64,000 bases of DNA from a phage (GCA_012813795.1 GCA_012813795.1_4087.1), one strand, 5' to 3'; numbered from the stretch's first letter, positions 273 to 39,392 are shown. Notes: generated from the sequence alone by a model not told the origin. Translations and numbers: made by a program.

Positions 273-2171
273 TTAAAAGAATATATCACGTAGTAAATGT
301 TCTATAACAGGTGCTGTCCAGCCATTACCAAGCATTTTGTACGCTTGTGTTGAACTACTAACTTTGAAGTAGTTTACATCAATTCCTTGCAACATGCAAC
401 ACTCTTGTACTGTTAAATGACGATAGTCCACATTTCGTTTACCCTTCTCAATCAGGAAGTTCCTGTTGATATCAGGGTCTTTGAAAACGATTTGTCTTCT
501 TGACTTATTGAAGTACTGATTCGGATCTCCACCCTTGAAGTAGTTTGCGTCAATGCAATATGATTTATCACGATCAGTATACCAATTACCAGTTAGTATA
601 TCTTGTAATTTTGGTGCTAAAATAAGAGGTTTTGGAATAAACAACTTATCCGAGCTATACCAGTAGTAACGTTGGCGATAATGTGCTGTATAATTTTGTG
701 AATTTATCAAAATTGGTGTCATTTCCAACACGCCATTGATATAATCCTTGAAATCTTCCTTCATCTTAACATTCTCAAAAAGAACTTTCAAGTTAGGATT
801 GAGACTTTTTATGTGCTGGTAAATATCAACCATTGTATGGAATAACATACCACGAGGATCATTCACACCGCCTTGTTTCCCAGCAACTGACCACGCTTGG
901 CAGTTATGAACTACAATATTGTTCGCCGTATATGTGTTATCTACTGCAACTTCAATATTGTAAACGGTTTTCCATTCTCCGGTTGTGGTGTTCGATTTAA
1001 CACCTTTTACCCATGAATATGACCCATCATCATAGAATGCTTCATCTTTTCGGTGCTTTTCTTTTTTGTATGTTAATACGTAATACGGCTTCTGATTAAC
1101 AACACGTTCTTCTATAACTTTTGTTTCAGACGGTTTAAAGTATGTTATGTTAGAATGACGACCATACACATTCATAATTAGTTGTTGTATACCAAGAATA
1201 ACATTCTTTGATGTTGATGTAAATTTTAAACAATCATCTTTCTTGTCATGGTGACCATCTGCGTCAAAATAACCATCAATGAATGCTTTCTGATTAGCGA
1301 TACTTTCAGTGAAAAGTGTGGGGTGTACTTGTTTATTTGAAGCACCCTTACCCATTTGTTCACAAAATTCAACTAGTTCTTTTGAACAAATATAGAATTT
1401 ATAAGATGTTCTTTCTTTAACAAAATTATATTTCATATTCATACCATCAAAACATGAAACCAATTCATCAAATTCATCATGAGCACAGCAAATAAAAACA
1501 CGATATTGATAACTATTTTTTCTATTTTGTCGTTTTACTTTGTAAGTCCATCCATCACCCATAAATCTACCCATGAAATACCAAAAGCTTTCACTCTTGT
1601 TATGTTGAAAATTCACATTACAACGAACATTACATATAGCATGTTCTTCTGTGAGTTCATGTGCATCGATCCATGTAGGTTCTGTATATTCACGAACATA
1701 TTGTCGTTTTTCATTATCCCACTTCTTGCTCATTTTTCTCGCATAAAATGGATGATTATCAGTGCATTCAATTGGTATATGTCCCTGACCTGTGATGATT
1801 CTTGTTGGTGCAATCTTGCTACCAATACTCAATACTTTTTGGTATTGTCCAGTGTGTGTAAGAACCATATCACCAATTTTTATATCTTTTATATCTTTAT
1901 GACCTTCATTTGTCATGATCATGGTTCCTGCTGGGAAGCAAGGAAAACCACCCATCAGAAGATCTATCTTGTCCCATTCGATATCCCATTCTTTCCATCT
2001 AGTTACATCACCCAATTGGATGATATCAGGAAAGTTAGCCTGGGATTCAGCTATAGCAAATTTATCAATTTCAGATGAGTAGTACTTTTCAACTGGTATT
2101 CCTGCACTTTGCAAGGCCATATACCCAACACTCATCCCATTGAATAGTGATAGTACACGTATCGGTTCCAT
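273..2171 (-). CDS. C5-cytosine DNA methyltransferase interrupted by an intein
   Basis: Motif I LSLFNGMSVGY; after intein removal GGFP-CQAWSVAG reconstitutes the PCQ catalytic motif; ENV motif, QECCMLQG and GNGWTAPV C-terminal motifs; exteins total 286 aa. Confidence 0.85.
   Translation of the reverse strand: MEPIRVLSLFNGMSVGYMALQSAGIPVEKYYSSEIDKFAIAESQANFPDIIQLGDVTRWKEWDIEWDKIDLLMGGFPCFPAGTMIMTNEGHKDIKDIKIGDMVLTHTGQYQKVLSIGSKIAPTRIITGQGHIPIECTDNHPFYARKMSKKWDNEKRQYVREYTEPTWIDAHELTEEHAICNVRCNVNFQHNKSESFWYFMGRFMGDGWTYKVKRQNRKNSYQYRVFICCAHDEFDELVSCFDGMNMKYNFVKERTSYKFYICSKELVEFCEQMGKGASNKQVHPTLFTESIANQKAFIDGYFDADGHHDKKDDCLKFTSTSKNVILGIQQLIMNVYGRHSNITYFKPSETKVIEERVVNQKPYYVLTYKKEKHRKDEAFYDDGSYSWVKGVKSNTTTGEWKTVYNIEVAVDNTYTANNIVVHNCQAWSVAGKQGGVNDPRGMLFHTMVDIYQHIKSLNPNLKVLFENVKMKEDFKDYINGVLEMTPILINSQNYTAHYRQRYYWYSSDKLFIPKPLILAPKLQDILTGNWYTDRDKSYCIDANYFKGGDPNQYFNKSRRQIVFKDPDINRNFLIEKGKRNVDYRHLTVQECCMLQGIDVNYFKVSSSTQAYKMLGNGWTAPVIEHLLRDIFF
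903..1940 (-). mobile_element. intein (346 aa) with LAGLIDADG homing-endonuclease domain
   Basis: Starts CFPAGTMIMT (block A), TDNH block B, two LAGLIDADG-like motifs FMGRFMGDGW and AFIDGYFDADGH, ends VVHN followed by +1 Cys. Confidence 0.75.
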
Positions 2172-2399: not shown

Positions 2400-2457
2400 G
2401 CAAAATATAATTCCTTATACATTCTTTCTCTCTGATACAAACATTATATCTCCTAAT

Positions 2458-2748
2458 TTAGAAATCGTCAATACTTTTTTCTTGACACCATCGGGCAGTA
2501 CAGATGATTGCCGATGCAAGGATTGAAGCACTAGCACGACCACCGCCTAATATGTACTGACTGACCACACCAATCATATTGAACACTTTATCACTCTCGG
2601 ACAGTTGTTCAAAATCCTTTTTCCAAAATTCATATTCTTCGTCTGAAACTTCAAATTCACTACCCATATCATTTAAAATCTTTTTTAGTACTGCACTATG
2701 TTCACTCATCTTTATCACCATAACGTTCGTCGTAGTAATCATCATCAC
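2458..2748 (-). CDS. hypothetical protein
   Basis: ORF track; start uncertain (no clear SD). Confidence 0.4.
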   Translation of the reverse strand: MMMITTTNVMVIKMSEHSAVLKKILNDMGSEFEVSDEEYEFWKKDFEQLSESDKVFNMIGVVSQYILGGGRASASILASAIICTARWCQEKSIDDF

Positions 2749-2785
2749 GGTCTAATGGTTCTTTTGGTTTTTCGCTCATATTTCC

Positions 2786-3046
2786 TCACATGGTAAACGT
2801 GTTATCACCATCCATGTCTTCATCAGTTGCTTCTGCTAAGGTCTTGATAGTTAATAATCCACGCTTCACATACAACATGAAAACCTTTTCATAATTACCA
2901 AACATGATTTCCGGTGACATGTAATTTTCTGTTACAATGACAATTGGTCGCCCCTGTGTCAGCATACGAAACATAGTGCGATATTTGTCAAATGTACGGA
3001 ATTCATCCATGTTCATCATGTGGCGTTTACGAACTACTGTAGTCAC
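2786..3046 (-). CDS. hypothetical protein
   Basis: ORF track, fits minus-strand tiling. Confidence 0.4.
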   Translation of the reverse strand: MTTVVRKRHMMNMDEFRTFDKYRTMFRMLTQGRPIVIVTENYMSPEIMFGNYEKVFMLYVKRGLLTIKTLAEATDEDMDGDNTFTM

Positions 3047-3050
3047 TGTG

Positions 3051-3473
3051 TTACCCTTTCAATTGTTTCTCGATATGGAATGTATTGTATATCTTGTTGT
3101 ACACAGTGTCAATAATTTTCTTAACGTCTGCTAACTCTTCGACAGTTGTGCACACATCACTGATAGTACTTAACTGAAACAACTCTTCTTCAGTACTGTA
3201 CAGTGTTATATCAAATTTGTTGCGAAGTTCATCTTCGATAACGTATTGATTTGTGACAGTATATGATGCAATTTCAACATCCAACAACTTATCACCTTCA
3301 AAAACATTATAAATGAACACAAATGTTAGTTCTTCACTCTCATCATCACTGTAGCTTATATATACATTGTAATTTTCACCATGAAAATCAAGATTGTGCT
3401 CAAACCTATTATCAGGTACTAGTGAATCTATAGGCATTCCCTTTAACAAATCAAAACAATCTCTTGGGTTCAT
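3051..3473 (-). CDS. EEx-FQ-SL paralog family member 1
   Basis: C-terminal TEEELFQLSTI motif shared with six neighbouring ORFs. Confidence 0.6.
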   Translation of the reverse strand: MNPRDCFDLLKGMPIDSLVPDNRFEHNLDFHGENYNVYISYSDDESEELTFVFIYNVFEGDKLLDVEIASYTVTNQYVIEDELRNKFDITLYSTEEELFQLSTISDVCTTVEELADVKKIIDTVYNKIYNTFHIEKQLKG

Positions 3474-3910
3474 TTTACATCCATTTGTCGCTGTTCATCA
3501 ATAAAAAAGATGTTAAAGATAGCTGAACGCATTTTTGTTAGCGTACTCATGAGATATTTTAAATCCTTGAAATCAATATTAAATGTTTGAACCAGTGATT
3601 CCTGGAAATACCCCTCTTCAGTAGTGCATTCACTTACATTTTGTACCTGATATATTTTGATAATATTATCATCACGAAGCATAATTTCTAAGTTATTGTT
3701 ATTAACATTGTGCACGATATACATCTGATCACCATATACCAGATTATTAACTGATAATGATAATACATTATTTTCAATAATAATCTTAAAGCAATTCTGA
3801 CCTACGTATGTGGTATTTTTAATTTGTTCTTCAGGATCAGTCAAACCATCGTTGATAAATTTAATTTTATTAAAAGTACTGATATATTTTTTAACTAATT
3901 TAATGTTCAT
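3470..3910 (-). CDS. EEx-FQ-SL paralog family member 2
   Basis: TTEEGYFQESLV motif. Confidence 0.6.
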   Translation of the reverse strand: MNIKLVKKYISTFNKIKFINDGLTDPEEQIKNTTYVGQNCFKIIIENNVLSLSVNNLVYGDQMYIVHNVNNNNLEIMLRDDNIIKIYQVQNVSECTTEEGYFQESLVQTFNIDFKDLKYLMSTLTKMRSAIFNIFFIDEQRQMDVK

Positions 3911-4287
3911 TGCTTTACCTTAGATAGAGCATAATTCATTATTGACTTGATTTTTTGTAAATTGTCATATGACATTACATGTTTTTCAATTAATGATAGT
4001 TGAAATAATTCTTCTTCAGTTGAATTCAAGTAAACTTCTGAACCATCATAATTTTCAAAATCATAAAGGTATGAAAGACGGTCATCTATATACCAACCAA
4101 TCCATTCAATGGTGTTTCTTTCTTTGAAAACACAAGTATATGGATTATCTCTTGAATCTAAGGTTATGGTTAAACGTAAACATGAATTTGATTGTTGTAC
4201 ACTCTGTCTCCCATAATATACAGTAACCTCATCGGTTTCAATTGATTTATACAAAGCATCAATTTTTCTATCCAATTCATCTACCAT
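3907..4287 (-). CDS. EEx-FQ-SL paralog family member 3
   Basis: STEEELFQLSLI motif. Confidence 0.6.
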   Translation of the reverse strand: MVDELDRKIDALYKSIETDEVTVYYGRQSVQQSNSCLRLTITLDSRDNPYTCVFKERNTIEWIGWYIDDRLSYLYDFENYDGSEVYLNSTEEELFQLSLIEKHVMSYDNLQKIKSIMNYALSKVKQ

Positions 4288-4691
4288 AATCTTACCCTTT
4301 TCAATGCTTTAACTTCGTCAGTGCACGGGAACACAACGAATCCAGTTAATGTTAGACCATCAAAATGGTTGAATCCATAATCATGAATCTTAGTTGCAGT
4401 GAATCCTTCAGCTTTCACTTTATCGAATAGATTAAGCATCTGTTCTTCAGATTTAGCCTTTAAGATAATCTTGCGGCGACCGTCCTGTACCCAAGTACTG
4501 AAATCGTTCAGGATCTTTTCATCTTCATCTCTTGGGTTCTCACCAACAGCATTACAACCACGAATTGATGTACCAGCAACTGTAACCGTGGACCAGATAG
4601 AATCAACCGCATGACCCGCCTGAGCAGCAAGCTTCCCAACTGGCATATCTAAGTCTTCACGAATGATTATGTAACATTTACTTACTGTCAT
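4281..4691 (-). CDS. peptidyl-tRNA hydrolase, Pth2 family
   Basis: YIIIREDLDMPVGKLAAQAGHAV resembles the Pth2 core (vvRtDLkMgkGKiaAQcsHAav); C-terminal pattern also similar; AAAGGAG SD. Confidence 0.75.
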   Translation of the reverse strand: MTVSKCYIIIREDLDMPVGKLAAQAGHAVDSIWSTVTVAGTSIRGCNAVGENPRDEDEKILNDFSTWVQDGRRKIILKAKSEEQMLNLFDKVKAEGFTATKIHDYGFNHFDGLTLTGFVVFPCTDEVKALKRVRLW

Positions 4692-5103
4692 CTACAATCT
4701 CCTTTTCATATTGCTCAAGTATCGAATAGATCTTATTGGAAATGTCCAATGTTTTAACATAATCACAGTACCTGATACACCCAAAATCATACAAAGTACT
4801 AACCATAAAGAATTCTTCTTCAGAGTACTTCTTTTCATTGAATGTAATGGTATTTGTAATTTTTCCAGATTCTGAATATTTTACATAGATAATACTACCA
4901 TTACTTATGTAATCTAATGTCTCTGAATACTTTTCAATACTAGAACTATGTCTAAATTGAATTCCTACAGATTTATCATACCAAAGAGATTTATTTCCGT
5001 CAGTAAGTATAGCATAATCAATCTTACGTTTATCATTGACACACATACCACAATCGGTAATTTTTAGTTTAGTGATATCAATATTCAACAGATCACTTAT
5101 CAT
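4678..5103 (-). CDS. EEx-FQ-SL paralog family member 4 (divergent)
   Basis: SEEEFFMVSTL variant of motif. Confidence 0.55.
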   Translation of the reverse strand: MISDLLNIDITKLKITDCGMCVNDKRKIDYAILTDGNKSLWYDKSVGIQFRHSSSIEKYSETLDYISNGSIIYVKYSESGKITNTITFNEKKYSEEEFFMVSTLYDFGCIRYCDYVKTLDISNKIYSILEQYEKEIVDDSK

Positions 5104-5527
5104 CCAATTCTCCGAATTTGGTTAGAGCAAACACTTTTGCCTCATCATGCAGTTTGTGAATTAGTATGATATTATCATATGTTAAATCTAGTACATTGTC
5201 AACAAGTGAACGTTGAAATAGTATCTCTTCAGATGTGATTTCATGGATGTTTTCTATCTTAATTTCATTGAATGTATCAGTTTCATTTTCTCGCGTACTC
5301 ATGATCAACGTACCACTCGTTGAAATGTATGATATCTTGGTATCCACACCATCAATGGTTGCGTACAGGCGAATTATTTCATATGAATCAGTTAATCTTA
5401 CATTAACCTTAATTTCATCCTCTGTACAAAACCACACACTTTTAGCAAAGAAATTGACACGTACTTTCATATCTTTAAGTTTATTATTTTGGAAATATTT
5501 TAGTACTTTTTTGAATGATATAATCAT
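5093..5527 (-). CDS. EEx-FQ-SL paralog family member 5
   Basis: TSEEILFQRSLV motif. Confidence 0.6.
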   Translation of the reverse strand: MIISFKKVLKYFQNNKLKDMKVRVNFFAKSVWFCTEDEIKVNVRLTDSYEIIRLYATIDGVDTKISYISTSGTLIMSTRENETDTFNEIKIENIHEITSEEILFQRSLVDNVLDLTYDNIILIHKLHDEAKVFALTKFGELDDK

Positions 5528-5544
5528 ATGTATCTCCTTTAGTA

Positions 5545-5940
5545 CTATATCGCATAGTACTTAAATAATGTTTTTAGATCATCAATAGTGAATGGTAAAT
5601 CCTCCAAAAGCAACTGTTGAAAGTAATGCTCTTCGTCAAGATACTTATGTATATTGATGAATGATTTTCTATGATAATCCGCTTTCCATGTAGGTCTTGT
5701 ACCCTTAGTATATTCAGTGAATACAATTTTGTCCATACCATAATCATACACGAATTCATTCTTTTCTGCAACCCCCTGATACTTTAGTTTTACCGGTTCT
5801 TTGCTGATAGAAAATTTATGCTCAGATGATTCATAATAGAATGATGATTGCTGATATTTTGATAAATCAATCTTTGAAAAATCATTTAGATAATAAGAAA
5901 GTTTAATTGTGACGATGCTGCCTATTCGACGACCCAACAT
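5545..5940 (-). CDS. EEx-FQ-SL paralog family member 6
   Basis: DEEHYFQQLLL motif; AGGA SD. Confidence 0.6.
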   Translation of the reverse strand: MLGRRIGSIVTIKLSYYLNDFSKIDLSKYQQSSFYYESSEHKFSISKEPVKLKYQGVAEKNEFVYDYGMDKIVFTEYTKGTRPTWKADYHRKSFINIHKYLDEEHYFQQLLLEDLPFTIDDLKTLFKYYAI

Positions 5941-5962
5941 ACTTTTATCCTAATATAAAAAA

Positions 5963-5979
5963 TGCCCCTGGGAGGGGCA
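5963..5979 (-). terminator. hairpin tgcccct-ggg-aggggca followed by T-run on minus strand
   Basis: 7-bp GC-rich stem, 3-nt loop, TTTTTTAT downstream on minus strand. Confidence 0.4.
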
Positions 5980-6089
5980 GTACGAAAAGATATAAAATGT
6001 ACAATAAGAAATGGAAAATATAATAAATTAATTTTATTATAGAAGGGAGGAAAAATAACATAATAATATGTTAGCCATTACTGGCATAA

Positions 6090-6641
6090 TTATTTATCAT
6101 TAAGCTCTTTTAATTTAGTCTGAACATCTAGTGTTAATTTTCTTAGTTTCTTAAAGACAAAAGCACTGTCATCTAGTTCAAGTTTCATACCATGTGTAAT
6201 GGCATAAAGAACTTCAGCTTTAGCCAAATCATGACGCATCCAATTACCATTCTTATAGAGAGTCATTACACAAAAAGGGCAAACACTTTCAGATGTTTGA
6301 TGACCAATAAAAACGGATTGTATCGTATCATGTTGGAAATTAATAAATGACTCGTTAATTTTTTGAATTTCTGCAATTACATCAAGTTTAGCATCCGTAT
6401 TAATAGCAAAAATATTGTTCCCGTTGTCATCAGTATTGATGTTTAGCTCTATATCAGAACCTATTTTGCGTACTGCCATTGTATAAAGCAATAACTCATA
6501 CATGTCATATGACGTTACATCACCGCTTGGTGCAGTAACGTTAAGGTTAACACCGTGATGTGTAACTTCAGTACTGAATCCTTCTTTATCTGCTAGGAAA
6601 TTTACAATTTGGTTCGTGAATTTTTGAATTTGTTCGATCAT
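6090..6641 (-). CDS. hypothetical protein
   Basis: ORF track; AAAGGAG SD upstream. Confidence 0.55.
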   Translation of the reverse strand: MIEQIQKFTNQIVNFLADKEGFSTEVTHHGVNLNVTAPSGDVTSYDMYELLLYTMAVRKIGSDIELNINTDDNGNNIFAINTDAKLDVIAEIQKINESFINFQHDTIQSVFIGHQTSESVCPFCVMTLYKNGNWMRHDLAKAEVLYAITHGMKLELDDSAFVFKKLRKLTLDVQTKLKELNDK

Positions 6642-6682
6642 ATTAAGTACTCCTTTACTTTGTCTTATTTAACAAATGAATA

Positions 6683-6706
6683 TAAGGCTCCCGATTGAGA
6701 GCCTTA
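6683..6706. terminator. hairpin taaggctc-ccgattga-gagcctta, T-rich on both sides
   Basis: 8-bp stem; downstream of gene 6719..7156. Confidence 0.4.
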
Positions 6707-6718
6707 TTTCTTTTTATA

Positions 6719-7156
6719 TTATGCGGTTTCTTCTTCGAACTTAGCGACGATATCAACCATTTCATTGATTAGTTTGATATGGTCATAAGTTACTGAACGG
6801 AAATCTACAACAAGTGACTGTTGGAAGAATTCTTCTTCTGGCAACCCACCATCAAAGTTGAGATCAACATTCTCATCATCATTAGTTGGTGCAACCTTGA
6901 TGTTGAAACTATTTTCATCAACAACCAGTTTAACTACACAACCCAAGCAGATAGATAGTACATATGCTGGTTTCTTAGCTGCTTCTTTACGGAAAGGTGC
7001 ACGAAGAGCACATACTACGCTACTAATTTCATCACCTTCTTCTTTATATTTGACGGTAATCATTAGCTCTTCAACTTTAATCGCTTCAATTACACGAGAA
7101 GGGTTTTCTGCGAAGAATGGGTTGTTACGGATTACTTGTTCAAGATTCATATTCAT
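6719..7156 (-). CDS. EEx-FQ-SL paralog family member 7
   Basis: LPEEEFFQQSLVVDF motif. Confidence 0.6.
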   Translation of the reverse strand: MNMNLEQVIRNNPFFAENPSRVIEAIKVEELMITVKYKEEGDEISSVVCALRAPFRKEAAKKPAYVLSICLGCVVKLVVDENSFNIKVAPTNDDENVDLNFDGGLPEEEFFQQSLVVDFRSVTYDHIKLINEMVDIVAKFEEETA

Positions 7157-7347
7157 TCCTTATTCATATCACTAAAGTTACGGAGATTGCGATTAGCTTT
7201 GAATTGTTTCAAATCACTGAATCGGTCATCAACCAAAAATGTTGCTGTTTCTGTTGCCTGACATGTTGTACAAACTAACATACCTTGTATTGTATACGCT
7301 GTATTGCAATTTGTACAGTACTTTTTTTCAATCAACTCGACGTTCAT
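7153..7347 (-). CDS. small zinc-ribbon protein
   Basis: CTNC ... CTTC cysteine pairs. Confidence 0.45.
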   Translation of the reverse strand: MNVELIEKKYCTNCNTAYTIQGMLVCTTCQATETATFLVDDRFSDLKQFKANRNLRNFSDMNKE

Positions 7348-7679
7348 AAAACCTTCACATCACTACGTTTATTTCGTGCGTCTTTCTTTTCCTCATCAGT
7401 TCGTGTATCATCTAATTGTAACACAACTTCTTTAAGAATGTCAACATCAATTTCAGCTTCTACGTAATGAAAGTCATTGCGACCAAAAACATACTTCACT
7501 GCAACCCATACACGCTTGTACCATTTAAGAAAAGGATTCAAACGCATACTGACTGTACATTGACCAAGTTTATCATCACCGTGTTCTTCTGTCAAGTCAA
7601 ATTGTGCAATGTGAACACAATGTTCATTTTTATCACCACAAGTACAACGCAACATAAACTCTTTGCTATCTTTACTCAT
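7344..7679 (-). CDS. hypothetical Cys/His-containing protein
   Basis: CTCGDKNEHCVH cluster. Confidence 0.5.
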   Translation of the reverse strand: MSKDSKEFMLRCTCGDKNEHCVHIAQFDLTEEHGDDKLGQCTVSMRLNPFLKWYKRVWVAVKYVFGRNDFHYVEAEIDVDILKEVVLQLDDTRTDEEKKDARNKRSDVKVL

Positions 7680-8263: not shown

Positions 8264-8494
8264 TTATTCCTTAATATATGCATACGGCATAAAAACAACT
8301 TCAGCACCATCTACAGTATCAGCTATCACCTTAACAATACTTTCATTTTTGTTACATTGCCATACTTTTGTTATTTTATGCCTGAATACATTTCCATCTT
8401 TGACAATCCAGTACATGTTCATTTTAACAGTGCTTTCTTCACTTGGCACTAAAAGTTCATTTATTGGGGTTGCATCAAATGTTAGTTTGTTCAT
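8264..8494 (-). CDS. hypothetical protein (start uncertain; track gives 8545)
   Basis: Internal Met start reduces overlap with upstream gene. Confidence 0.35.
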   Translation of the reverse strand: MNKLTFDATPINELLVPSEESTVKMNMYWIVKDGNVFRHKITKVWQCNKNESIVKVIADTVDGAEVVFMPYAYIKE

Positions 8495-8822
8495 TTTTAT
8501 ATAAATCCAAAACATATTGTCCAAAATAAAGCTCAATAGCATCATTTACCATTTGAACCTCATTGCGATATATACCATTTCCACCACACACAGAACACAA
8601 ACACTGATACTGTGGTGTTTTTATTATAACACGACCAGCAGAAAATGACCTTATATCTTTTGCATAGTTCATCTCCATATATTCAAGTTCAAGAGTATGA
8701 TCTACATCCTTATTGTAACATATCCAACAAGTTCTTGAATGATTCATATCAGTTGAACCCCCATAAATGTGCAAATGAACTGTCATTTCTAACCAATTCT
8801 TTTGCATACGAACTAATTGCAT
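8475..8822 (-). CDS. small zinc-ribbon protein (CxxC pairs)
   Basis: CWIC ... CSVCG; resembles neighbour 8749..9024. Confidence 0.45.
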   Translation of the reverse strand: MQLVRMQKNWLEMTVHLHIYGGSTDMNHSRTCWICYNKDVDHTLELEYMEMNYAKDIRSFSAGRVIIKTPQYQCLCSVCGGNGIYRNEVQMVNDAIELYFGQYVLDLYKNEQTNI

Positions 8823-9024
8823 TCACAACCATAATATTAACACAATTCAACTCATGAAGAACAAGTTCATTACCACATAATGAACAAGATGTACTATAAA
8901 ATGGTGTTGGTAATTTTATATAGCCACCTCTTAATGGAAAGACTTGTTCCTCTATTGTCAACATTGTATCAGACGGAGTGACAAACATCTCACATTCAAG
9001 ACAACAAATTTTCACTTTATCCAT
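8749..9024 (-). CDS. small zinc-ribbon protein (CxxC pairs)
   Basis: CCLEC ... CSLCG. Confidence 0.45.
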   Translation of the reverse strand: MDKVKICCLECEMFVTPSDTMLTIEEQVFPLRGGYIKLPTPFYSTSCSLCGNELVLHELNCVNIMVVNAISSYAKELVRNDSSFAHLWGFN

Positions 9025-9865: not shown

Positions 9866-10396
9866 TTATTCTCCTAACATTCTTAATACATTAGAAATAA
9901 AGAACACATCAAATGGTTCTTTTGGATTTGCTACAGAATGCTGAAATGCATATTCATGAAAATTTTCACGGTCTAACCAATCTTCATTATTAACTAACAT
10001 TTTTTTCTCACCAAGAATCACACTATGTATAGATGTGAAAGATTCTGTTGATATGGTATATCCAACCAATGTACCTTTTTTAGTGAAATCGAAAGTACCA
10101 AAATAATTTCGGGTATATTGTCTTGTTCTATTTTCAAACATTCTTGCAATATTTTCTTTGTATGGATCAGAATATGGCTGACGATATATGGGGTCTAAAG
10201 ATCCAAACATTTCTATTTTAGATTGCAGGGTTATTAAATTATCCGTGATAAAAAAATGAACGCCTTTATATTCGAAATCCTTCTTACGATTATATGAAAA
10301 TACTGATACATCCCACTCTGATATTACCTGAACGAACTCATTAACACCTCTTTCCAGATCGGGGAGATATGGTAGATCTTTATTATCGTATTGCAT
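9866..10396 (-). CDS. hypothetical protein
   Basis: Start moved to ATG with AAAGGA SD (track 10414). Confidence 0.5.
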   Translation of the reverse strand: MQYDNKDLPYLPDLERGVNEFVQVISEWDVSVFSYNRKKDFEYKGVHFFITDNLITLQSKIEMFGSLDPIYRQPYSDPYKENIARMFENRTRQYTRNYFGTFDFTKKGTLVGYTISTESFTSIHSVILGEKKMLVNNEDWLDRENFHEYAFQHSVANPKEPFDVFFISNVLRMLGE

Positions 10397-10964
10397 GTTT
10401 ATAATCCTTTTCAAGATTTAATACTTCTAAAATACTAAATTTATTGGAACCCTCAATGTCTTTAATAAATGCATCTGGATTGTCTTCTAATGAATATATT
10501 TCACCATTGATAAGCGTTTTTTCATGTAGAATCATAGCTGACATAATCTTATTACCCATAGATTCTTTCTCAGGCGTTGTACCATTACTATTGGTGAAGT
10601 AAATGAAGTTACTTGGTAGTTCACTCCACTCAACTGATATGATATTTTTCATAGCTGTTGTTGTACAAACTTTAATATAACGCTCAATAATCGTATTGGA
10701 TGAAGTTGCCGCAATTGTCATTGGATGACCGTGGGCAATATTTACACCGCTTGGAACTGCGATAGATGATGATATATTTGGAACATTGGATTCAATTTTA
10801 GGTTCTTTTATCCCTAAAATAAATTCATAATGACGAGCATGATGCTTCATTTTAAAAATTATAGTATCTGATTCAAAACTATAAGGAAGAATTATATTAT
10901 CATATGCACGCTTTTTGATTTCTGCTATACGCTCGAACAACTTAAGAGTTTCATTATAAAACAT
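10383..10964 (-). CDS. hypothetical protein
   Basis: ORF track; AGGA SD. Confidence 0.55.
   Translation of the reverse strand: MFYNETLKLFERIAEIKKRAYDNIILPYSFESDTIIFKMKHHARHYEFILGIKEPKIESNVPNISSSIAVPSGVNIAHGHPMTIAATSSNTIIERYIKVCTTTAMKNIISVEWSELPSNFIYFTNSNGTTPEKESMGNKIMSAMILHEKTLINGEIYSLEDNPDAFIKDIEGSNKFSILEVLNLEKDYKHAIR

Positions 10965-33809: not shown

Positions 33810-39392
<5,583 letters not shown>

Follow-up and report, generated by a model that had tools for sequence, protein, structure and literature searches.

A 64,000-nucleotide stretch of phage DNA (GCA_012813795.1_4087.1, hereafter the window) carries between positions 3051 and 7156 a tandem array of seven small genes, which we find to be full-length paralogues of one single-domain α+β protein family, roughly 100-230 residues in length. 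This family, referred to here as the EE-FQ family, is large, ancient and clade-specific; its members are not virion proteins, and they evolve fast under constraint. Our preferred interpretation, to which we assign a probability of about 0.4, is that the family constitutes a diversified repertoire of cytoplasmic host-factor binders built on a fixed scaffold. A role in host takeover or anti-defence is plausible.

The region 2400-7400 of the window matches Escherichia phage A4 (ON286972.1, genus Asteriusvirus, 355.5 kb) at 99.2% identity over its full length. A further 35 Asteriusvirus records match at the DNA level in the flanks of this region only. Judged by its sequence, the window belongs to an Asteriusvirus jumbo coliphage.

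Homology of the seven genes and census in phage A4

Every gene in this part of the window, the seven included, lies on the minus strand. An earlier note on this DNA had listed seven co-oriented open reading frames (ORFs), and they are present exactly as given there, at 3051-3473, 3470-3910, 3907-4287, 4678-5103, 5093-5527, 5545-5940 and 6719-7156. They encode 126-146 residues, each with an ATG start codon and a purine-rich Shine-Dalgarno-like sequence upstream, and several neighbouring ORFs overlap by 4-14 nucleotides in an operon-like manner. The conserved member of the array is 6719-7156 (145 residues; motif PEEEFFQQSLVV at 6806-6841), which may start at 7150, two codons later, as it does in the A4 annotation and in database orthologues. 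A tightly packed run of six paralogues begins with 5545-5940 (131 residues; DEEHYFQQLLLE at 5602-5637) and continues with 5093-5527 (144 residues; SEEILFQRSLVD at 5198-5233), 4678-5103 (141 residues; SEEEFFMVSTLY at 4789-4824, where FM replaces FQ), 3907-4287 (126 residues; TEEELFQLSLIE at 3985-4020), 3470-3910 (146 residues; TEEGYFQESLVQ at 3587-3622) and 3051-3473 (140 residues; TEEELFQLSTIS at 3159-3194), the most acidic of them (net charge -18, isoelectric point 4.2). The motifs quoted in the note as lying some 40 residues from the C-terminus are correct; they start 29-49 residues from it.

Homology among the seven was assessed with leave-one-out profiles built from the C-terminal segments of six members and searched against the 331 window ORFs of at least 40 residues. 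The omitted member ranked first of 331 in every case (E = 3.2 x 10-8 to 3.5 x 10-3), well beyond chance, and the best unrelated ORF had an E-value of at least 0.03; the proposal of a multigene family is thereby borne out. The member with the weakest profile score, 4678-5103, accounted for the upper limit of 3.5 x 10-3, and it ranked first with the C-terminal profile and second with full-length profiles. The final family profile recovers exactly these seven ORFs in the window. An additional candidate, ORF 37982-38722, had been matched by an early full-length profile of seven sequences (E = 5 x 10-4), but the final profile does not reproduce this match, which we regard as spurious. Each of the seven matches its own PHROG (phrog_23322, 24510, 24941, 33313, 30548, 36084 and 30841), with E-values between 3 x 10-66, for 6719-7156 and phrog_23322, and 3.7 x 10-7; weaker cross-matches link members through PHROGs 13866, 17453, 24321, 24941 and 23322. 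There was also one weak, sub-threshold match to a 'toxin' PHROG (E = 0.057).

For the genome-wide census, the A4 genome was represented by the window and seven further A4 stretches. A profile of 19 members from A4 and phage 121Q found dozens of members elsewhere in A4 on which it had not been trained, the motif being visible in each. An iterated profile seeded with database homologues (cut-off E ≤ 10-3) converged on 61 A4 ORFs, all on one strand, and gave no matches to reversed sequences. The seven genes of the earlier note are therefore a large undercount: the genome holds about 61 members, or roughly 10% of A4 genes. A regular expression for the motif, which requires no alignment, gave 40 matches in coding-strand ORFs, 39 of them within the profile family, and none in opposite-strand ORFs (50,714 residues); the remaining match, A4_254, is likely to be a 62nd member.

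The 61 members are 102-229 residues long (median 156), acidic (median isoelectric point 4.75) and arranged in runs of up to nine. Positions 30.7-59.5 kb of A4 hold 37 of them, and 20, including those of the window, lie at 287.7-331 kb, with four elsewhere; two of the A4 members are found just beyond the left edge of the window. No additional Pfam domain was found in the ten longest members. Just 10 of the 61 can be connected to another member by BLAST (E < 10-5), and this would account for the family having been overlooked in paralogue counts that relied on BLAST. One member, A4_348 (L010 37054-37599; motif LSPEEYFQESLVQD), is annotated as 'DNA ligase'; it has no Pfam ligase domain and the annotation is probably wrong.

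An AT-rich genome might yield a shared motif by chance or through composition, or ORFs that are not real genes, and pairwise BLAST among the seven indeed finds weak similarity, limited to about 40 residues of the motif segment. We nevertheless consider this explanation already refuted. The leave-one-out ranks, the failure of reversed sequences and of the non-coding strand to produce matches, dN/dS values below 1, the retention of positional orthologues across two genera and confident structural models for both paralogues modelled all speak against it.

Fold, distribution and evolutionary rate

The AlphaFold2 model of 6719-7156, calculated from an alignment of 28 sequences, has a mean predicted local distance difference test score (pLDDT) of 93.2 and a predicted template modelling score (pTM) of 0.87. 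It begins with two short helices, continues through seven consecutive strands and ends with two further helices, one at residues 107-116 (EEEFFQQSLV) and a long C-terminal one at residues 124-144. The model of 5545-5940 (pLDDT 82.7, pTM 0.77) has the same order of elements, with the motif helix at residues 103-112, even though the two paralogues share less than 20% identity. Both are thus predicted to form one domain, in which two N-terminal helices are followed by an antiparallel β-meander of six to seven strands, the motif helix and the C-terminal helix. Since the two models agree and positional orthologues align over their full length at 25-30% identity, the N-terminal ~90 residues appear to be the same sheet in diverged form. 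The earlier note had described a conserved C-terminal module joined to a variable domain. The difference in rate is real, the N-terminal two-thirds evolving about twofold faster than the motif part (pooled dN/dS, the ratio of nonsynonymous to synonymous substitution rates, 0.24-0.30 and 0.11-0.12, respectively), but the models and the orthologue alignments argue for one shared domain rather than a module fused to differing domains.

The family signature, [ST]-E-E-x-[YLF]-F-Q-x-S-[LT]-[VIL]-x-[DN], forms the first of the two C-terminal helices that follow the antiparallel sheet. Among the 61 paralogues, its positions are occupied as follows: [ST] in 36, the two glutamates in 51 and 50, F in 60, Q in 59, S in 50, [LT] and [VIL] in 54 each, and [DN] in 39. 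Within the motif helix, residues vary freely only at i, i+4 and i+8, all on one helical face, and [ST]-x-x-E is a classical helix N-capping box. For these two reasons we infer that the motif is mainly a fold signature, namely an N-capped and largely buried helix, rather than a docking peptide. The suggestion of a docking module, for which structure prediction had been asked, therefore finds little favour with the periodicity of conservation. We also considered a cleavage site of the TEV/3C type (E-x-x-Y-x-Q|S) and rejected it: the glutamine is followed by a variable residue before the serine is reached, and a helix is predicted for the segment.

A word-indexed search of 5.8 billion proteins returned only 21-38 relatives, all from Asteriusvirus records or contigs of ~350 kb. 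When 1.84 billion representatives were searched exhaustively with HMMER, 59 clusters matched at E ≤ 10-3, nearly all of 80-220 residues with the pattern TEEE[FY]FQxS[LT]; a 5815-residue Vibrio protein in this search is probably a spurious repeat match. With two distant members as queries, tblastn matched the Salmonella phages Munch, 7t3 and PHA46, the Klebsiella phages fENko-Kae01, RaK2 and K64-1, Escherichia phage EJP2, Pectobacterium phage CBB, Cronobacter phage GAP32 and Erwinia phage Hallingskeid. The named database matches are without exception RaK2-like jumbo phages or ~350-kb contigs, which places the family across the RaK2-like jumbo phages of Enterobacterales. Many copies in one genome and restriction to one clade are what is expected of a lineage-specific paralogue expansion in jumbo phages. 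A structure search of BFVD returned Asteriusvirus paralogues, together with RaK2 and GAP32 proteins that are uncharacterised and matched weakly. One database protein of 181 residues (P0028) consists of a gp83-type member fused in a single ORF with its 50-residue gp82 neighbour (96% and 94% identity to the two parts); this fusion, seen in some Asteriusvirus genomes, reflects either a lost stop codon or a frame error in the sequence.

The array is old. The syntenic locus of 121Q has positional counterparts of all seven genes and three members beyond the methyltransferase gene, giving ten members in 18.6 kb, and the syntenic 40 kb of RaK2 (genus Alcyoneusvirus) contains 12 members, including positional orthologues of the window array. 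Embedded in the array is a gene for a PTH2-type peptidyl-tRNA hydrolase (4281-4691, minus strand; Pfam PF01981, E = 2.6 x 10-18), which is not a family member. It occupies the same embedded position in RaK2 (ORF188, 60% identity) and in A4-like contigs, and is absent from 121Q. The RaK2 gene argues against an insertion specific to A4, which the 121Q locus might have suggested, and makes loss in the 121Q lineage more likely. Because RaK2 keeps orthologues of the array with PTH2 at the same place, both predate the split between Asteriusvirus and Alcyoneusvirus.

The six clustered members share 25-44% identity with their positional orthologues in 121Q, compared with 65-94% for flanking genes; against RaK2, the values are 26-34% for array members and 45-83% for flanking genes. 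Individually, 3051-3473 is 38% identical to 121Q gp88; 3470-3910 is 25% identical to gp87 over its full length and 26% to RaK2 ORF191; 4678-5103 is 32% identical to gp85 and 34% to ORF187, both of which share its FFM variant; 5093-5527 is 26% identical to gp84 and 27% to ORF186; and 5545-5940 is 29% identical to gp83 over 131 of 131 residues. The corresponding figures for 6719-7156 are 72% for gp80 and 48% for ORF184, with a dN/dS of 0.02.

Substitution rates were estimated from two A4-like metagenomic contigs, L004 (the more distant) and L005, which have the same gene order as the window. Against L004, the six clustered members have dN values of 0.07-0.25 and dN/dS values of 0.11-0.56, compared with 0.005-0.06 and 0.01-0.25 for most flanking genes; the exception is the small ORF 2458-2748 (dN 0.13). 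The highest ratio of the seven, 0.56, belongs to 3907-4287, for which comparison with L005 yields 10.5 nonsynonymous and 1.5 synonymous changes, too few for significance. Taken together, these values argue that the members are real genes whose evolution is accelerated yet under purifying selection.

Expression signals and possible roles

Promoter-like sites of the sigma-70 type were defined as TTGACA-17/18-TAnAAT with at least 11 of 12 consensus positions. The window has 17 such sites on the minus (coding) strand and two on the plus strand, with an expectation of 2.3 ± 1.4; 12 of the 17 lie within the first 16.5 kb, and perfect 12/12 sites occur on the minus strand at 8249-8221, 13436-13408 and 14644-14616. 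Throughout A4 there are 113 sites on the coding strand and 11 on the other, concentrated in the two arms that bear the family (Spearman 0.42, p = 0.012). The consensus scan also placed a site inside the array, upstream of 4678-5103 (TTGACA-17-TATGAT, 5174-5202, minus strand), and two hairpins on the same strand. One, terminator-like (6682-6707), lies between 6719-7156 and the next ORF downstream, which encodes 183 residues; the other (5963-5979) is G+C-rich, is followed by a T-run and lies ~20 nucleotides upstream of the start codon of 5545-5940, directly before the ribosome-binding site. The latter is likely to be a terminator or attenuator that separates the 183-residue ORF from the six-gene run; should transcription end there, the run would be left with no obvious promoter of its own. 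In the related phage phAPEC6, rather than in this phage itself, the orthologues gp119c-121c and gp127c-134c are not among the 62 virion proteins (Table 1 of PMC7247149). Among the sources searched we found no transcriptome of a RaK2-like enterobacterial phage; only the distant PA5oct has one.

In our preferred interpretation, the EE-FQ proteins would probably be made in the cytoplasm, probably early and from promoters for the host RNA polymerase, and would not become part of the virion. The fold would be stabilised by the conserved pair of helices with its capping residues; the sheet and loops, which evolve fast, would provide a binding surface particular to each paralogue. Such a repertoire could bind or inhibit host proteins in the service of host takeover or counter-defence, and would be kept diverse because hosts differ.

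Several observations weigh against this interpretation. Gene-wide positive selection is not supported, as dN/dS is 0.10-0.56 and exceeds 1 only in one comparison resting on 12 substitutions. The highest full-length identity between A4 paralogues is 53% and there are no recent duplicates; the family is thus not the active 'accordion' expected in an ongoing arms race. All PHROGs matched are labelled 'unknown function', and no homologue has an annotation that would indicate what the proteins do. Iteration of the census profile on its own matches makes the E-values of individual weak members optimistic. The buried scaffold helix is deduced from the periodicity of conservation, not from inspected coordinates. 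Early transcription by the host polymerase is suggested by promoter-like consensus matches only, and the consensus scan found no strong promoter between the hairpin at 5963-5979 and the six-gene run.

A different function for the motif would follow if the invariant E-E/F-Q/S helix docked all paralogues onto one machine, such as a phage ClpA/ClpP-like protease, a sigma factor or the host RNA polymerase, with the variable sheet recruiting the targets. The polar residues of the helix are very conserved (Q in 59, S in 50 and the glutamates in 51 and 50 of 61) in proteins that are otherwise 15-25% identical, and A4 is annotated with ClpA-like, Clp protease and ClpP/crotonase-like proteins as well as several sigma factors. 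Large paralogous adaptor families are also typical of other large DNA viruses. However, the confinement of variable positions to one face of the motif helix suggests that the remainder is packed inside the fold, the [ST]-x-x-E pattern has a ready explanation as a capping box, and no member is fused to, or consistently beside, a candidate partner. We think that common-partner adaptors are unlikely. The boldest form of this idea, a library of ~60 adaptors docking on one shared machine such as the phage ClpA/ClpP-like protease, with the sheet selecting host proteins for destruction or sequestration, strikes us as distinctly improbable. If true, it would parallel, in a bacterial virus, the ubiquitin-ligase adaptors that have expanded in poxviruses and giant viruses, and would also be the largest phage paralogue expansion that we have found reported.

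The proteins could also be acidic mimics of nucleic acids, or nucleic-acid-associated regulators, with an architecture like that of p32/MAM33. They would then sequester host proteins that bind DNA or RNA, restriction enzymes and nucleoid proteins among them. This would be a special case of the host-factor binders. At the level of DSSP strings, the p32/gC1qBP/Mam33 fold shares an element order with both AlphaFold2 models (a helix, seven antiparallel strands and two C-terminal helices). The p32 proteins form a homotrimeric ring with an asymmetric acidic surface; for the phage family, acidity was measured in bulk (median isoelectric point 4.75). A Pfam scan of 17 members gave nothing near threshold for p32/gC1qBP/MAM33 (PF02330). 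Mimicry of this kind seems to us rather a long shot. As a further explanation, the proteins could be chaperones or assembly factors that stay outside the virion and help to build the complex fibres and whiskers of these 'hairy' phages, given that RaK2-like and 121Q-like phages bear many different fibres (PMC7247149, PMC5259590) and that assembly chaperones are typically absent from virions. Against this, none of the 61 copies lies within the structural and fibre gene blocks at 140-230 kb, the members sit among small early-type ORFs with sigma-70-like promoters, and sixty chaperones would far outnumber the fibre genes. We consider morphogenetic helpers very unlikely.

The functions of most jumbo-phage genes have yet to be established, as has the way in which these genomes became so large. 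About one tenth of Asteriusvirus genes, orphans by appearance in BLAST, belong to one ancient and fast-diverging family that is common to RaK2-like phages of E. coli, Klebsiella, Salmonella, Cronobacter, Pectobacterium and Erwinia. Dozens of 'hypothetical proteins' are thereby turned into one tractable problem, with one fold, one signature and a natural panel of ~60 variants. If these variants bind host factors, a large new supply of activities for host takeover or counter-defence would become available; several such phages are under consideration for therapy.

The surrounding locus and known systems

The 183-residue ORF that separates 6719-7156 from the six-gene run (6090-6641, minus strand; phrog_15745) is conserved, with 70% identity to 121Q gp81 and 52% to RaK2 ORF185. 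A stretch 'FQHDT' in the alignment made it a candidate eighth member, which is ruled out by the absence of any match to the family profile at E ≤ 5. Further along the window, 9866-10414 and 10383-10964 (minus strand) form a second hypervariable pair, with 28-30% identity to 121Q gp71/gp70 and 25-29% to the RaK2 counterparts, between neighbours of 67-83% identity; the pair does not belong to the EE-FQ family. In each of the overlapping small ORFs 8475-8822 and 8749-9024 (minus strand), a pair of CxxC motifs suggests a zinc ribbon. The two ORFs, which both show weak similarity (24-36% identity) to the single 121Q gp74, may be a local duplication.

At 273-2171 (minus strand) lies the gene for a DNA cytosine-C5 methyltransferase of 632 residues, into which an intein bearing Hint and LAGLIDADG domains is inserted. 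The orthologues in 121Q and phAPEC6 have 286 residues and no intein. The intein is present in the A4-like contig L005 and in phage ph0011, and the gene in L004 is called as two short pieces. Other paralogue sets of A4, visible to plain BLAST, are found at 26.4-31.3 kb and 344.7-354.6 kb (L010, L008): a 12-member family of ORFs of ~72 residues, and eight 'DNA condensation protein' genes on the opposite strand.

The earlier note had not recognised the family. Searches of Pfam, NCBIfam, PADLOC and PDB sequences gave no usable match, and the PADLOC-DB defence-system profiles in particular yielded no family at E ≤ 1 for the seven members and the 183-residue ORF. Among characterised anti-defence and host-takeover proteins, we found no relative in PDB sequences; no dedicated anti-defence library was searched. 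Foldseek gave no significant match in the PDB (best E = 0.04). Polo-box domains (PLK2, the cryptic polo box of PLK4, KKT3) show no sequence similarity to the phage domain (8-12% identity). The polo-box match was not found by Foldseek and covers only about half of the phage domain, which possesses an additional strand and a second helix. We regard the resemblances to the polo box and to the p32 fold as analogies.

Expansions of small domains have been reported for other jumbo phages. Bacillus phage G has a zinc-ribbon family of ~35 copies that was called unprecedented (Iyer et al. 2021, PMC7824862). In phages G and 121Q, arrays with over 30 similar genes in tandem have been described (Hua et al. 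2017, PMC5646251). Like the EE-FQ family, these are many paralogues of a small domain in one jumbo-phage genome, largely in tandem and attributed to duplication. Unlike the zinc ribbons of phage G, the EE-FQ proteins belong to a different family with more copies (~61), BLAST links for 10 of 61 and a maximum identity of 53%. The 121Q array of Hua et al., being of 'very similar genes', is probably a different family. Pectobacterium phage CBB has been credited with 22 paralogous ORFs (PMC5259590), and for RaK2 the literature remarks that ~10% of gene products are paralogues. Literature searches on the motif strings and on paralogue families of Asteriusvirus and RaK2 returned general remarks only, in which the EE-FQ family is not described.

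A broader parallel can be drawn. Large eukaryotic DNA viruses have multigene families for interaction with their hosts, and bacterial toxin systems have poly-immunity arrays; both are usually read as repertoires against variable host or competitor targets. The EE-FQ family differs from them in having no adjacent toxin or ligase partner and no recent copy-number change that we could see, and there is no relation in sequence or fold. What it shares with them is an organisation of tandem, divergent paralogues on one scaffold that evolve faster than their neighbours.

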